Positions 29,963 through 37,170 of a DNA stretch of 49,350 nt are shown piece by piece (the stretch's first letter is position 1; each line of letters starts with the position of its first letter). Origin of the DNA: a virus (lineage: Duplodnaviria; Heunggongvirae; Uroviricota; Caudoviricetes); the IMG/VR virus record IMGVR_UViG_2671180676_000008. One strand, given 5' to 3'. The notes below the pieces were generated by a model. It had not been told where the DNA came from. It was given only the letters and a program-made list of their open reading frames with translations, and did not search any database. The translations under genes were made by a program, and so were the position numbers.

Positions 29963-30532
29963 TCATTGAACATATAAAAAAACAGCCGAGATAAACATCG
30001 CCGCTACCGGAGCAAGGATGGTATACATCCTTGCTTTATCGAGACTCGTGCGGATTTTCTCATTTTCCAACAGTAACTCTCTTGCTGTATCACTCAAGTC
30101 AACAAGGCGATACCTTCGTATAAGCGGCAATAACTTATCAGGTCCTAAATATCCTGCATCAGCGAATATTTTAAAGCTCGAGGGCTCCATATCCTTATAT
30201 TTTTCATGATATAGATGATCAGGAGGGGCATTGATCAGGCCCCTAACCTTCACAGATAAACCAGTACATACCAAGTAAATGGCGCACCATGTCCATAGTA
30301 ATGTAAATGTGGTAATTCCGGCGGTGAGAAAATCGAAATTAGTTTTCTGTGTCAGCAATAAAAAAGATGAACCAATTCCAACAATCTGAATGTTCAGAAG
30401 TTTGTATCCATTCTCAACATTGGTTTTGTTAGAAAGATGAATCTCTCGTATCGTCTCTTCCCCTTGTTTTTCAAGATAATCGACGAGCTCATCATCTACT
30501 CCTAAAAAATAATCTTTAGGTAGTTCTCTCAT
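29963..30532 (-). CDS. Hypothetical membrane protein (Q-S moron)
   Basis: 189-aa AT-rich ORF with about three hydrophobic segments, between the post-Q terminator and the holin. Confidence 0.55.
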   Translation of the reverse strand: MRELPKDYFLGVDDELVDYLEKQGEETIREIHLSNKTNVENGYKLLNIQIVGIGSSFLLLTQKTNFDFLTAGITTFTLLWTWCAIYLVCTGLSVKVRGLINAPPDHLYHEKYKDMEPSSFKIFADAGYLGPDKLLPLIRRYRLVDLSDTARELLLENEKIRTSLDKARMYTILAPVAAMFISAVFLYVQ

Positions 30533-30635
30533 CTCACCTCCACATCCTGTACTGAAAACAATTTTACCAGAATGTCTCGATTCTAGGTATTCCGCCAGGA
30601 ATCGCGCTCCAGAAATGAAACATCAGGTTCGCCAG

Positions 30636-30676
30636 TACCAGAAACAACAAAACCCGCTCAATGGCGGGTTCTGGTA
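30636..30676 (-). terminator. Late-operon terminator-like compound hairpin downstream of Q
   Basis: Inner stem aacccgc/gcgggtt and outer stem taccagaa/ttctggta, with TTTGTTGTTTC on the - strand; position matches lambdoid tR-prime. Confidence 0.4.
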
Positions 30677-30753
30677 AAGTTCATGCGCTTGGTTCGCCTC
30701 GCGATACAGCTTTGCGAAGCATACCGGAATTGAAGCAGTTTATGCGTAAAAAA

Positions 30754-31296
30754 TCAAGCTATTTTTTGAGCAAATGATTCTCGCATGGGAATATATAGGG
30801 CATACTCAGCAACAGCCAACCAATTAGCAATTCGCTTTTCGCATGTGCTAAAACACCACTCAGGATGTGCATCATTTAGCAATTCAGCCATTTTGCGCTT
30901 AGTCATCCCCCGTCCTTCATACCGTTGCCGGAGGACACTAATCAATCCAGGATGCTCTGCCAGCACCTCACTTATGACTCTATCAATACATAACGCCTCT
31001 GCATCAGTACAATGCGCCAGCCAGGTCTTTTGCTTGCCATTGATCATCTCTCGCAAAAACGCTTCCAGCTCAGGTTTCTCTATTCCCGCTTTTTTCATCC
31101 TGCGCAGGGCTTCATTGACGGCTGTTTTCGTCAATTTTTTGGATGCCAGCAACTGGTTAAACATATTTCCCGTCTTACCGCCGCCAATATACGACCAGCG
31201 CCCCCACATGCGCAGTTTTCCCTGAATCCAGACACTTTCCAGCGTGGTGAGACGAAGGTGTTCCCCGCTTTTGCCTGTATTTGTTGGGTAAATCAT
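30754..31296 (-). CDS. Late antiterminator Q (phage 21/82 QuuD-like family)
   Basis: LRMWGRW segment resembles QuuD-type Q proteins; immediately upstream of the lysis genes; start taken at MIYPTN to avoid overlap. Confidence 0.6.
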   Translation of the reverse strand: MIYPTNTGKSGEHLRLTTLESVWIQGKLRMWGRWSYIGGGKTGNMFNQLLASKKLTKTAVNEALRRMKKAGIEKPELEAFLREMINGKQKTWLAHCTDAEALCIDRVISEVLAEHPGLISVLRQRYEGRGMTKRKMAELLNDAHPEWCFSTCEKRIANWLAVAEYALYIPMRESFAQKIA

Positions 31297-31583
31297 AAAT
31301 AACCTTCCTTTCTCCAGATTTCTTGTGTGCGAAAAACACCTTCTGCATGCATCAGGCGTAATTCTTCTTTGGTGTAATCGCTGGTTTTTACCCGCCCGTC
31401 GATTAAATCGTGGCATGAGCTACAGGCAATCGCTGCCTGCATATCGTGTGGTTTTGTCGCTGTTCCGCACGTCCCCGCCAGCCTGTAATGCGCCAGCACA
31501 GAGGTTTCGGGATTGTGATTGCAGTAGCCAGGGATTCTGATCTGGCACATCTGGCCTTTAGCCGCTTTACGTAAATTCACCAT
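31293..31583 (-). CDS. YbcO-like Cys/His-rich nin-region protein
   Basis: 96-aa ORF with a C..C..H..C..C..H pattern, just upstream of Q. Confidence 0.5.
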   Translation of the reverse strand: MVNLRKAAKGQMCQIRIPGYCNHNPETSVLAHYRLAGTCGTATKPHDMQAAIACSSCHDLIDGRVKTSDYTKEELRLMHAEGVFRTQEIWRKEGYL

Positions 31584-32182
31584 TACGCAAACTCCAGTAG
31601 TTGTGCGGCCACATTTTCAACTTCCTCCTGAGAGGAGAATTTACGGAACAGAATCCAGTTCCACAGCACATTCAGAACAGATTTATAAACCTGCTGAAAC
31701 TCGGTTTCGTCCATATTCGCAAACGCGATGGATTTCGCCCTGCGCCCACGGCTACCGTCCGGATAAATATGCTCGGTGTAAAATCCGGCCTGAATGGTTA
31801 CCCACTCGCGGAAAGCCTCAAACGACTTTAGCAATGCCGTATCCCGAGTTCTGCGTGTCGCAACTGTATTTAGATATTGCTCTGCGGCATCACTCAGGGC
31901 TGGTGTGTGTTCCCGACCAACTGATTCGCACAAGTAATCCACGAAACCAGACAGCAGTTCTCGTTCGCGAGGTGTGATCGCCCCACCGACCGGAGTCCAG
32001 TAATCGAATCCCAGTTGCAGGAGTTTGAAAAAACGCTTGTGGAATGCGTAGTTACGCACACGCTTAAAGTCTGCGTGTATCCACTCACCTATTTTGATTT
32101 GATGCAGAAAATCGCAACTCTCCGGCGTCGCCGGGAGAAGTAAACCAGAAGAGGTTTGTTTGACCAGTTGTATATGCGCCAT
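31583..32182 (-). CDS. Conserved lambdoid nin-region protein, function unknown
   Basis: 199-aa ORF tightly packed upstream of the YbcO-like gene. Confidence 0.5.
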   Translation of the reverse strand: MAHIQLVKQTSSGLLLPATPESCDFLHQIKIGEWIHADFKRVRNYAFHKRFFKLLQLGFDYWTPVGGAITPRERELLSGFVDYLCESVGREHTPALSDAAEQYLNTVATRRTRDTALLKSFEAFREWVTIQAGFYTEHIYPDGSRGRRAKSIAFANMDETEFQQVYKSVLNVLWNWILFRKFSSQEEVENVAAQLLEFA

Positions 32183-32462
32183 TTCTCAATCTCTCGATGG
32201 CGCAGCGCAGCAGATGCCAGTTGTTCAGGCTGACGAATAAAGTATAAATAAACTGGCTATGGTGTAAAGCCCCACATAGCATGAACAAACACTACATATC
32301 AAATAGCTGGTACAAGGATAGAAATACGACATTTATTATTAAAAACGATTAGATAAATTACATTTTAATGTTATGCAAAAGTTCTTTTTTATCATAACAT
32401 TTCAATAAAAGCATTACAGATGCAATCATCCCGTCATCATCAATTATTTAAGGTGGTTAAAC

Positions 32463-32549
32463 ATGGAAAATAACAAGTTCGCACATCTCGCTCCTTTTTT
32501 ATCCGTAATCCTTTTCGCTTGTTGTTTTATATGGGCATTATTTTTATAA
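32463..32549 (+). CDS. Candidate small hydrophobic peptide (28 aa)
   Basis: ATG preceded by AAGGTGG at good spacing; translation MENNKFAHLAPFLSVILFACCFIWALFL; in an AT-rich spacer. Not in the ORF track. Confidence 0.3.
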   Translation: MENNKFAHLAPFLSVILFACCFIWALFL

Positions 32550-32940
32550 AGTAGCCACATGATAAGTTGCTGGAATCATATTTCCCACTCAAGTCATTAA
32601 CATTTGATAAGATATATCTAAAAGGACACCTTTACATTATTTATGTGTATATAATTTATTTATATACACAGTAAAGGTATCCTGGGAAAATATTTATCGT
32701 TAAAAAATACATCATAAATAATTAAGCTGAAATTTCAGAACACAACTAATACACACAATAAGGTTCAGTAACAATAATCTATGTGGACTACATCGAGATT
32801 TTTTGATTAAACTTTAATAACTTATTCCTAACACACAGAATGCATAAACTAAAAGTAAAACAAATAGTTATACGAAAAACAACCATATTTATTATATCTT
32901 CTCCTCTAATCAACATATCAATTATGTGTTTCATAACAGC

Positions 32941-32988
32941 TTGACATAACCCTCAAAAACACGCATTTATAATACATGTTTTTGAGGG
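32941..32988 (+). promoter_or_regulatory. Promoter-like elements with a 12-bp perfect inverted repeat upstream of the yeaR-like gene
   Basis: TTGACA (32941..32946) and TATAAT (32968..32973), 21 bp apart; inverted repeat ccctcaaaaaca/tgtttttgaggg (32951..32988) encloses a GCATTTATAATACATG core and overlaps the SD. Confidence 0.4.
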
Positions 32989-32995
32989 GGTGGTT

Positions 32996-33334
32996 ATGAC
33001 ACACAAGAGAATTCCTAAAGATTGGGTAATCAAACGCTCAACTCCGTTCTTCACAAAAGAGAACGTACCTTCAGCGTTATTAACACATCATAATACAGCA
33101 GCAGGTGTTTTTGGGCAGTTGTGCGTAATGGAAGGCACTGTAACATATTATGGTTTTACTGATGAGAATGCTACTGAACCGGAGATAAAAGTAGTCATTA
33201 ATGCTGGCGCTTTTGCAACAAGCCCACCACAATACTGGCACCGTGTTGAACTAAGCGATGATGCTCAGTTTAATATTAACTTTTGGGTCGCTCCAGACTT
33301 CTCGGGCGAAAAAGTCTATAGCACCAAAAAATAG
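32996..33334 (+). CDS. YeaR-like DUF1971 family protein
   Basis: RSTPFF..K...GV.G.L.VMEG.V.YYGF.DE...EP...I.AG.FA..PP.YWH..E...D..FNI.FWVAP pattern matches E. coli YeaR as I recall it. Confidence 0.65.
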   Translation: MTHKRIPKDWVIKRSTPFFTKENVPSALLTHHNTAAGVFGQLCVMEGTVTYYGFTDENATEPEIKVVINAGAFATSPPQYWHRVELSDDAQFNINFWVAPDFSGEKVYSTKK

Positions 33335-33363
33335 ATGATCATATTAAAAATGCTTTAACAGTC

Positions 33364-33400
33364 AGACCCGGCAGGGCTATCCCCGACGGGTCTCATTTTT
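33364..33400 (+). terminator. Putative terminator downstream of the yeaR-like gene
   Basis: Stem agacccg/cgggtct with a long loop, followed by CATTTTT. Confidence 0.35.
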
Positions 33401-34096
33401 GTAAATATATTGGTTCTACATTGACAGGAGACTTCAACCATAAGAAGTAATCTGAATACTTGAGCAATAAATTTACTTAAGATTAATGAGCGCACCTTGC
33501 CGGACAAAGATAAACCAAGGTAACACCTTTTTTCTAGCCAGTATGTAATCAATCAGAAAGCCGCTCCATAAGAACAACAGCAAGACAATAAATTGCCATT
33601 ACAGCCGCAATAGCCAGCGCACATTTGAGAACCAGCACGACAACCCCCTGTATTAGACGCACACCAGTCCTGATAAATATGAGGCTGTCTCGTCAGTGAT
33701 TCAATACAACTATTGGGTATAGTTTCTGTGATTTTATTCTGTAGAAATGGAACACAACAACCAGTCACCACCAGCACTTCTTTAAATACGCCAAGTCCGA
33801 CGCAAGCTAACCTTCTAGTCCGCTTTGAGCGAAAAGCGGACAGGAACATTCTGGTTAATAGATATCAATGCTAACAAAAAAGCTCCCGATGGAGATTTTG
33901 AAACCGCTTCCACATAATGAAATAAAAGGATTTATTTCTGGTCATGCCCACACATTGACCACGTCGAAGTAAGTAGCTCCGCTTCGCGGAGTTACTTAAG
34001 ATAATTTCTATGTAGTTCCATGCTATGATTTAATTTTCAAGTTACAAAATCTAAATCTACAAATGTCCATTTGGGTGTAAAATTACACAATCCTAT

Positions 34097-36422
<2,326 letters not shown>

Positions 36423-36540
36423 TTTAATTACCTTATATATCCAAACTCTTAATTTTCTCTTTTTTACCATAGGATTAATCCAAAATAAAGACCTTGTTGA
36501 CTAAACCCTCATGTACAAAATGCACACTTACTCAAAAGGA

Positions 36541-36566: not shown

Positions 36567-36723
36567 TTTAGTTCCTAGGGATAAGCAGAAATCTAGCACT
36601 GGATTAAAATTTAAAAATAATAATCAATAGGTTATAATGGTTTTTATTCGCATCCATGGGATCTGCTGCTGCCCGCATGATGTTGGATGCGACGGCGCTG
36701 GCACGACCTCACCCGGTGAAACG

Positions 36724-37170
36724 ATGAAACGCGAAAGGGTTGTTCTTCGGGAAGGTGCAGTTGGACTTTCAATCGATGACGTTGCAAAAGAGGCTGGCGT
36801 CAGTAAGGCAACGGTAATGTACGATCATAAGTCAAAGCAAGATTTGCTCAGCGATCTCATCAGTCGCCTTATGCCAGTAGAGGAGGAACGTGTTCAGCAA
36901 GCGATAGCGGAAAGTAATAATACCCCACATCCCGCACTCTATGGGCGAATTATTTCAGCCAGTAATGCTCTCAGTCATACTGAGAGAGCAGTAGTGCTGG
37001 CGGTCAGCGAATCGTTAACTAACGATACGAATATCAGGGACACCATGCGTTCCTGCACAAACAAAGATTTGGATGAGATAAAAAGAGGACCAAAACCAGA
37101 CGTTGCCGTCCTGGTATATTTGGCGTTATCTGGTATCTACTGCCAAGAATTTTTTGATTTTTACAAATGA
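36724..37170 (+). CDS. TetR-family-like transcriptional regulator (short)
   Basis: LSIDDVAKEAGVSKATVMYDHKSKQDLL resembles a TetR N-terminal HTH; divergent from the operon; alternative start at 36637. Confidence 0.55.
   Translation: MKRERVVLREGAVGLSIDDVAKEAGVSKATVMYDHKSKQDLLSDLISRLMPVEEERVQQAIAESNNTPHPALYGRIISASNALSHTERAVVLAVSESLTNDTNIRDTMRSCTNKDLDEIKRGPKPDVAVLVYLALSGIYCQEFFDFYK

Follow-up and report, generated by a model that had tools for sequence, protein, structure and literature searches.

A phage-borne member of the STM1808 subfamily with a predicted NsrR operator in a Rac-type prophage of Escherichia coli

STM1808 of Salmonella appears, in two articles that both cite Karlinsey et al. 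2012, as a gene of the NsrR regulon with a role in virulence (PMC7527575; PMC7082413). NsrR binds as a dimer to an 11-1-11 dyad (PMC3887101; PMC5320621), Rodionov et al. 2005 (PMC1274295) predicted NsrR control of a tehB homologue in enterobacteria and Photobacterium, and the DUF1971 gene yeaR is subject to activation by NarL (Lin et al. 2007, cited by PMC5320621). Here we describe a plus-strand DUF1971 gene at 32996..33334 of a viral genome record (IMG/VR IMGVR_UViG_2671180676_000008), the full 49,350 nucleotides of which we call the window, and which is a Rac-type lambdoid prophage of E. coli. The relevant Salmonella protein, STM1808, is reportedly (Karlinsey and colleagues, 2012) an NsrR-repressed zinc metalloprotein that aids growth under nitrosative stress, and the abstract of that study is said to name H32 and H82 as required for zinc binding and for nitric oxide (NO) resistance. 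Host-regulated phage morons include Fur-controlled stx1 and PhoPQ-controlled sodCI of Gifsy-2, and at hmp, ytfE and ygbA the NsrR site lies over the core promoter. The prophage cassette is a fresh example of known wiring and not a new mechanism: a predicted NsrR-regulon gene that is phage-borne. We consider it likely that an STM1808-type moron was captured together with its NsrR operator and is repressed by host NsrR and induced by NO.

The 112-amino-acid product of 32996..33334 matches Pfam DUF1971 (PF09313, the YeaR / TehB N-terminal domain family) over model positions 1-80 of 80 (E = 2.3e-26; 92 bits, cutoff 23.1). This match, BLASTP similarity to K-12 YeaR (41% identity, 8e-32) and the annotation of the prophage agree with a preliminary description of the locus as a YeaR-like (DUF1971) gene on a prophage. 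The likeness holds at the level of the family and does not extend to orthology, as alignment gives 41-43% identity to YeaR vs 75-82% to the STM1808 subfamily (orthologues from more than 80 species). Orthology to YeaR was rejected on the 41% identity and because K-12 yeaR has yoaG downstream and a different promoter; the two genes share Pfam DUF1971, a fold family (PDB 3BB6) and an NsrR site, which in the yeaR promoter reads AAATGGTATTTAAAATGCAAATT, but yeaR is co-transcribed with yoaG, whereas the prophage gene is monocistronic. A search of a large protein collection recovered a tight subfamily at 73-82% identity to the prophage protein, chromosomal in Kluyvera, Leclercia, Citrobacter, Klebsiella, Raoultella, Salmonella, Vibrio, Aliivibrio, Photobacterium and Shewanella. 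Among solved structures the closest is PDB 3DL3, which bears the annotation 'Tellurite resistance protein B' (E = 3.5e-59); YeaR 3BB6 (E = 1.6e-24) is much more distant, and 3M70 is a further relative. An in-frame GTG at 32990 precedes the ATG of the DUF1971 gene, and the RefSeq annotation uses the ATG form.

The Salmonella member of the subfamily (79% identity to the prophage protein) is encoded directly after nhaB-dsbB and, since dsbB is STM1807 (PMC4143323), the gene that follows it is STM1808. The two proteins are nearly equal in length (112 amino acids in the prophage vs 113), and H32 and H82 are invariant across the subfamily alignment, the prophage protein included. The prophage protein is classed as a xenologue of Salmonella STM1808. 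Both genes have an NsrR 11-1-11 site near the ATG, which in Salmonella diarizonae scores 19.2 bits with its centre 39 nt upstream. They differ in that STM1808 is chromosomal and lies right after the dsbB terminator, whereas the prophage gene has a terminator of its own, and in that the prophage operator is centred 27 nt from the ATG, close to the Kluyvera/Leclercia-type spacing of 28-30 nt.

The predicted operator upstream of the prophage gene, AACACGCATTT-A-TAATACATGTT, occupies 32958..32980 with its centre at 32969 and was identified by matrix score and by footprint. As a scoring model we used a symmetrised position weight matrix of the 16 non-redundant 11-1-11 sites that are positive by chromatin immunoprecipitation sequencing (ChIP-seq) in Table 4 of Mehta et al. 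2015 (PMC5320621). With this matrix the site scored 18.7 bits (natural logarithm of the P value, lnP, -15.3), and with one built from all 26 tabulated sites 19.8 bits (lnP -16.1). It is the top match in the 49-kb window, and its 18.7 bits lie within the leave-one-out range of bona fide sites (lnP of -15.2 for hmp and c5065 and -16.7 for yccM; -17.6, -17.7 and -20.1 for the known targets ygbA, yeaR and tehA when left out). To allow for local AT-richness, the 813-bp intergenic stretch around the site was shuffled, and 18.7 bits was reached anywhere in just 0.25% (mononucleotide) to 0.38% (first-order Markov) of the shuffles. The published PatSer cutoff of -14.28 was set on the authors' own matrix (PMC5320621) and is comparable, not identical, to the lnP of -15.3 found here. 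The core at 32958..32980 reads AACACGCATTTATAATACATGTT, as quoted in the preliminary description, and is centred exactly on the centre of the surrounding palindrome; the resemblance to NsrR half-sites proposed there passed the matrix scan, with conservation in orthologues in addition. The prediction that the inverted repeat is an NsrR operator is strongly supported. Elsewhere in the window, the second-best match to the matrix (36414..36436, 17.0 bits, AAGATCCATTTTAATTACCTTAT) lies across the start codon annotated for an adenosine deaminase gene; about 0.05 such matches are expected per window, and this one is probably due to chance, as a start-codon position is atypical for a repressor site.

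The comparative set comprised 80 subfamily loci, one per species, in which the 200 bp before each start codon were scanned. An NsrR site of at least 15 bits was present in 53 of the 80 (the prophage copy of Shigella, two Photobacterium loci and 50 enterobacterial chromosomal orthologues), compared with 0.3% of 1981 control windows taken within these loci; in Leclercia adecarboxylata (L013) the site is disrupted by an indel and scores 10 bits. Across 52 species representatives, of which one has the indel-disrupted site, all enterobacterial chromosomal orthologues with an intact site show it at 15-30 bits and in one shared register, 11 nt after the -35 and 27-39 nt before the ATG. Enterobacterial chromosomal sites mostly score 24-30 bits, with lower values such as 19.2 in S. 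diarizonae, and the Photobacterium damselae site scores 15.4. The distance from site centre to ATG is 27-30 nt in the Kluyvera/Leclercia type and 37-39 nt in the Citrobacter/Klebsiella/Salmonella type, the sole exception being one Photobacterium locus with its centre 55 nt before the ATG. When 50 distinct chromosomal promoters were aligned on the site centre, information content averaged 1.66 bits per column within the 23-mer vs 0.53 in the flanks, and the resulting consensus, AAGATGTATnTTAAATnCATCTT, matches the E. coli ytfE site, AAGATGCATTTAAAATGCATCTT, almost base for base. A TTnACn hexamer lies 11 nt before the site in these 50 promoters, in the same register as the TTGACA of the window, and the remaining flanks are unalignable, limiting the footprint to the 23-mer and the -35.

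At the nucleotide level the prophage cassette is homologous to the orthologues (72-77%) only between about 32953 and 33342, a span that takes in operator and coding sequence. Because the orthologues share the layout of -35, 11-nt gap and operator, and because homology starts at the operator, the operator appears to have travelled with the gene. A search for a recent donor among 79 species representatives gave a best nucleotide identity of 72-77% and identified none. The orthologue promoters also contain Fur-box-like 19-mers (e.g. GATAATGAGATTTATTATC; 14-17 of 19 consensus matches) in 20 of 79 cases vs 0.56% of control windows; they lie just upstream of or over the -35, some 75-91 bp before the ATG, and their bearers are L007-L028 (Kluyvera, Leclercia, Pantoea, Enterobacter and Buttiauxella) and L059 and L079 (Photobacterium). 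The prophage copy has no such box, its best match (12/19) lying elsewhere.

The perfect TTGACA and TATAAT, 21 bp apart, that had been reported upstream of the gene are indeed present at 32941..32946 and 32968-73 on the plus strand. A spacing of 21 bp between -35 and -10 is not expected to give a functional sigma-70 promoter. Treating the two hexamers as one promoter was rejected on this spacer and because the -10 of the orthologues sits instead at operator positions 7-12, where it reads TATTTT, TATATT or CATATT with a spacer of 17 or 18 bp. The corresponding window hexamer is CATTTA (32964-69, plus strand), 17 bp from the TTGACA, which itself lies 11 nt upstream of the NsrR-type 23-mer. A sigma-70 consensus scan that allowed spacers of 16-18 bp found no promoter at the cassette and a weak promoter-like match upstream of it, at 32750-32778 on the plus strand. 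Since the operator spans both candidate -10 elements, NsrR bound there would obstruct whichever is used. The analogy with yeaR does not extend to NarL: a consensus scan, the only search made, found no NarL 7-2-7 pair (TACYYMT-nn-AKRRGTA) within three mismatches at 30512-34323, and window-wide matches to the NarL consensus stand at chance level (32 vs 32.2 expected).

Given this arrangement, we propose that a dimer of host holo-NsrR would bind the 23-bp dyad at 32958-32980, which covers every candidate -10 and the expected transcription start, and would thereby exclude RNA polymerase. NO would nitrosylate the iron-sulfur cluster of NsrR, causing the repressor to leave the DNA, whereupon the gene would be transcribed and then translated from its own Shine-Dalgarno (SD) region (GAGGGGGTGG, 32984..32993, plus strand; GGAGGTGG in most alleles). 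The operator would have been captured together with the gene. Downstream, an intrinsic terminator on the plus strand (33364..33400) consists of a G+C-rich stem, AGACCCG...CGGGTCT (33364-33393), and a T-run at 33396-33400; it folds at -19.4 kcal/mol (z = -2.5) and was also detected as an inverted repeat. The cassette is, on these predictions, a self-contained, monocistronic unit of promoter, predicted NsrR operator, DUF1971 gene and terminator.

Several observations weigh against this assignment. The matrix is our reconstruction from a published table and is distinct from the authors' own. About one chance match at 18.7 bits is expected per E. coli-sized genome. The left half-site has C at position 5 in place of the well-conserved T, a difference from the canonical E. 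coli operators (ytfE, hmp, hcp and ygbA), with which it otherwise shares the 23-bp 11-1-11 dyad, and the window allele is among the weaker operator alleles scored. CATTTA is a poor -10 at the position used by the orthologues, and the perfect TATAAT is 21 bp from the -35. Finally, orthologues from Vibrio, Aliivibrio and Shewanella mostly have no site, so that NsrR control is not universal in the subfamily. Given the expected chance match per genome, the case for NsrR rests on position and orthologue conservation and not on the score by itself.

A further difference from the canonical operators is the setting of the prophage dyad, which lies inside a palindrome of 18-nt arms and inside an outer repeat extending as far as the start codon. 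The perfect 12-bp inverted repeat noted previously exists (CCCTCAAAAACA, 32950..32961 / TGTTTTTGAGGG, 32977..32988), with the right arm correctly placed and the left arm at 32950..32961 instead of 32951..32962. It belongs to an extended palindrome at 32950..32988 (arms 32950-32967 / 32971-32988, 89% complementarity, centre 32969), which reaches 8 bp beyond the NsrR 23-mer on each side. The 23-mer leaves out eight of the 12 arm pairs, and the chance of eight pairs all matching is about 1.5e-5 per site. These outer arms, CCCTCAAA / TTTGAGGG, fall outside the NsrR motif yet are perfectly symmetric in the window allele, as they would be if the dyad were the operator of another regulator, such as a phage repressor or a member of the Rrf2 family such as IscR, and its resemblance to an NsrR site were coincidental. 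The outer arms are, however, the least conserved part of the element, the conserved part is the one that matches the NsrR consensus (AAGATGTATnTTAAATnCATCTT vs AAGATGCATTTAAAATGCATCTT at ytfE), and the Salmonella orthologue is a documented NsrR-regulon gene; we regard control by another regulator as highly improbable.

Around the palindrome lies an outer inverted repeat, TGTGTTTCATAAC / GTTATGACACACA (32925-37 / 32993-33005, 12/13 complementary), which encloses promoter, operator, SD and start codon and is invariant in all alleles, making covariation there uninformative. The right arm of the 12-bp repeat does overlap the SD stretch at 32984-32993, as had been pointed out, and an RNA containing the left arm would adopt a strong structure, with -18.6 kcal/mol (z = -4.3) for the whole palindrome (32945-33005) and -30 kcal/mol (z = -5.2) for the 95 nt at 32918-33012, with AUG and SD within helices. 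These folds, together with the weak promoter-like match at 32750-32778 as a potential source of left-arm transcripts, favour a palindrome that would act mainly as an RNA hairpin, its left arm paired with the right and the outer repeat with SD and AUG so as to keep ribosomes from binding, with no part for NsrR. Such a role is very unlikely in our view. The conserved -35, 11 nt before the operator, places the predicted start inside or after the centre of the palindrome, leaving the left arm untranscribed, and RNA from 32976 onward, the predicted native transcript, has no significant structure (z = +1.1). Moreover, hairpin folding is common to all good NsrR dyads and thus adds no independent evidence; Kluyvera- and Klebsiella-type orthologues have no complementarity beyond the core, and SD pairing is absent from them and from most orthologues; and covariation in the palindrome among 13 E. 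coli alleles stays within controls. Of the two functions entertained in the preliminary description, a DNA operator or an SD-occluding hairpin, the former is supported and the latter disfavoured by the native 5' fold and the variable outer arms. We take the dyad to function as a DNA operator, with SD occlusion not a conserved mechanism.

The nested palindrome at 32925-33005 could still have a function of its own alongside the proposed operator, and IS10/Tn10 offers an analogy. There, as reportedly described by Davis, Simons and Kleckner in 1985, externally initiated transcripts undergo 'fold-back inhibition'. In both cases the promoter lies within an inverted repeat and only read-through RNAs would hold both arms and bury the ribosome-binding site; for the extended palindrome of the prophage cassette the comparison is an analogy only. 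Insulation from read-through by IS10-like fold-back inhibition is a doubtful but conceivable role. Under it, transcripts entering from upstream would fold at -30 to -41 kcal/mol and bury SD and AUG, and transcripts from the internal NsrR-controlled promoter, starting within the palindrome, would stay translatable.

Comparable extensions occur in part of the chromosomal set. When only the left flank was shuffled, z fell below -3 at 12 of 55 loci, which comprise members of the Citrobacter/Yokenella/Salmonella group and prophage allele B, and in the orthologues of that group five pairs outside the 23-mer are changed on both sides, a result reached by 0/500 shuffles and far above slid controls. 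The chromosomal orthologues with these compensatory extension pairs adjoin the dsbB terminator directly. Extensions of 8-11 bp on each side (GGCAT[T/C]TAT ... ATA[A/G]ATGCC) are seen in Citrobacter (L029, L030, L032, L035, L040, L046, L048-L050, L052 and L054) and Yokenella (L063), where the flanks resemble extra AGATGC half-site cores. A purely mutational origin of the extended palindromes, by template-switch correction in quasipalindromes, is equally allowed, and would also explain the operator hotspot and the triplet clusters of allele differences described below.

Among prophage copies the operator is markedly polymorphic. An NsrR-like core of 15.3-27.0 bits is retained at the same position in each of the 11 prophage operator alleles scored: the common allele A (AACACGCATTTATAATGCATGTT) scores 19.6 bits, the type II operator (AAGGTGCATTTATAATGCATGTT) 25.2 bits, and allele B (AAGATGCATTTTTAATGCAT(G/C)TT) 26-27 bits. 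Across sister alleles the core is kept or improved and the outer arms reaching the SD vary, one pair being either A-T or C-G and a second showing the path C-G to C-T to A-T. In 25 copies that share more than 99% identity over the 550 bp upstream (columns compared in L086-L125), the palindrome at 32950..32988 is a hotspot, 10 of its 39 columns varying vs 17 of 981 elsewhere (Fisher P = 1e-8); the coding sequence is nearly invariant, with 3 variable columns in 346. The window allele differs from type II by two clusters of three adjacent bases, of which the change from ATG to TGA at 32983-85 perfects the arms, and its SD is weakened (GAGGGGG instead of GGAGG). The exact 63-bp promoter sequence of the window is found in 3 of 458 carrier genomes, and the common allele differs from it at two positions.

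These features raise the question of whether the window operator is a decaying relic, captured with an NsrR site that palindrome-driven (template-switch) mutation has since eroded, damaging the left half-site along with the SD and the -10. In that case the gene would be poorly regulated or expressed and the perfect 12-bp repeat a mutational by-product. One of the weakest operators, a weakened SD, triplet-cluster differences of which one perfects arm complementarity, a hotspot centred on the palindrome and the rarity of the exact allele all speak for decay. Nevertheless, 18.7 bits is still within the ChIP-verified range of hmp and c5065, and the intact coding sequence argues that the gene is maintained; decay of the operator is unlikely, and so is its corollary of a poorly regulated or expressed gene. 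Under continued NsrR control, repression in the window allele may be leakier than in the sister alleles of 25-27 bits. Alleles of 15-27 bits among near-identical prophages form a natural series for relating operator strength to NO response, and the hotspot and extended palindromes could provide a natural setting in which to study quasipalindrome mutagenesis of a regulatory element.

Of 5426 complete E. coli genomes, 466 carry the cassette, nearly all in one copy; it also occurs in a Shigella flexneri genome, three deposited temperate phages and 34 IMG/VR viral contigs. Apart from two matches of 78-82% at contig ends, the IMG/VR copies are essentially all of the E. coli type. The remaining E. 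coli genomes gave no match to the cassette even at blastn sensitivity, so that E. coli appears to have no native STM1808 orthologue. The E. coli copies examined are prophage-borne or flanked by insertion sequences (IS), and 2 of 471 places are on plasmids. The cassette retains a DUF1367 gene as neighbour, and its other side varies among prophages: a SIR2/ITPase/adenosine-deaminase operon in the window, QueH in a second prophage (L003), Hok and KilA-N in a third (L004) and IS elements in E. coli AR_0128 (L005). In AR_0128 the cassette lies between ISSen4 and IS3, with an IS about 70 bp upstream of the ATG, beside a truncated tail-fibre gene. IS-bracketed and plasmid copies indicate that the cassette also moves outside intact prophages.

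With a predicted promoter and a terminator of its own, an orientation opposed to its surroundings, presence/absence polymorphism and downstream partners that differ among prophages, the cassette has the hallmarks of a phage moron. The earlier proposal of a prophage moron wired to host nitrosative-stress control has in silico support from the operator score, the orthologue footprint and the context. Like the stx1 and sodCI morons, it is a promoter-gene-terminator unit in a lambdoid prophage, opposed in orientation, missing from many related prophages and linked to a host stress sensor; it differs from them in that its predicted regulator is NsrR. In the open-access literature searched, we found no paper that describes the prophage copy or an NsrR-controlled prophage gene. 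About 9% of sequenced E. coli strains gain, via temperate phage, a homologue of a Salmonella gene with a role in virulence. If the operator functions as predicted, this would be a lysogenic conversion by cargo that brings along its own regulatory site, one able to act in every host that has NsrR.

An identical stretch of the prophage is found in E. coli strain BR1220, where it is annotated with racR, ydaS/T/U/V, kilR, recE, sieB, trkG, lysis and head genes. The cassette lies in the nin region and is a lone plus-strand open reading frame, opposite in strand to the flanking phage genes, the late and nin genes of the prophage all being on the minus strand. Its upstream neighbour is the DUF1367 gene (31583..32182, minus strand), separated from it by a non-coding stretch of 813 bp (32183..32995; 30% G+C, no annotated gene). 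An Rfam scan of 32100-34200 at E <= 1 returned just two sub-threshold matches to microRNA (miRNA) models, which reflect generic hairpins. The 813-bp stretch contains more inverted repeats, chiefly 32623-32644 / 32662-32683, with a perfect 11-bp inner pair at 32644-54 / 32660-70, and has no Rfam match. PADLOC gave no defence-system match for the DUF1971 protein.

The downstream neighbour is the three-gene operon at 34097..36470 (minus strand), which encodes an adenosine deaminase, a Ham1-type ITPase and a SIR2 protein and occupies the variable cargo slot. PADLOC found no complete known defence system in it; the SIR2 protein matches the SIR2 domain of ThsA (9e-32) and the deaminase matches the deaminase part of CARF_ADA (3e-36). 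A TetR-family gene (36637..37170, plus strand) is divergent from this operon.

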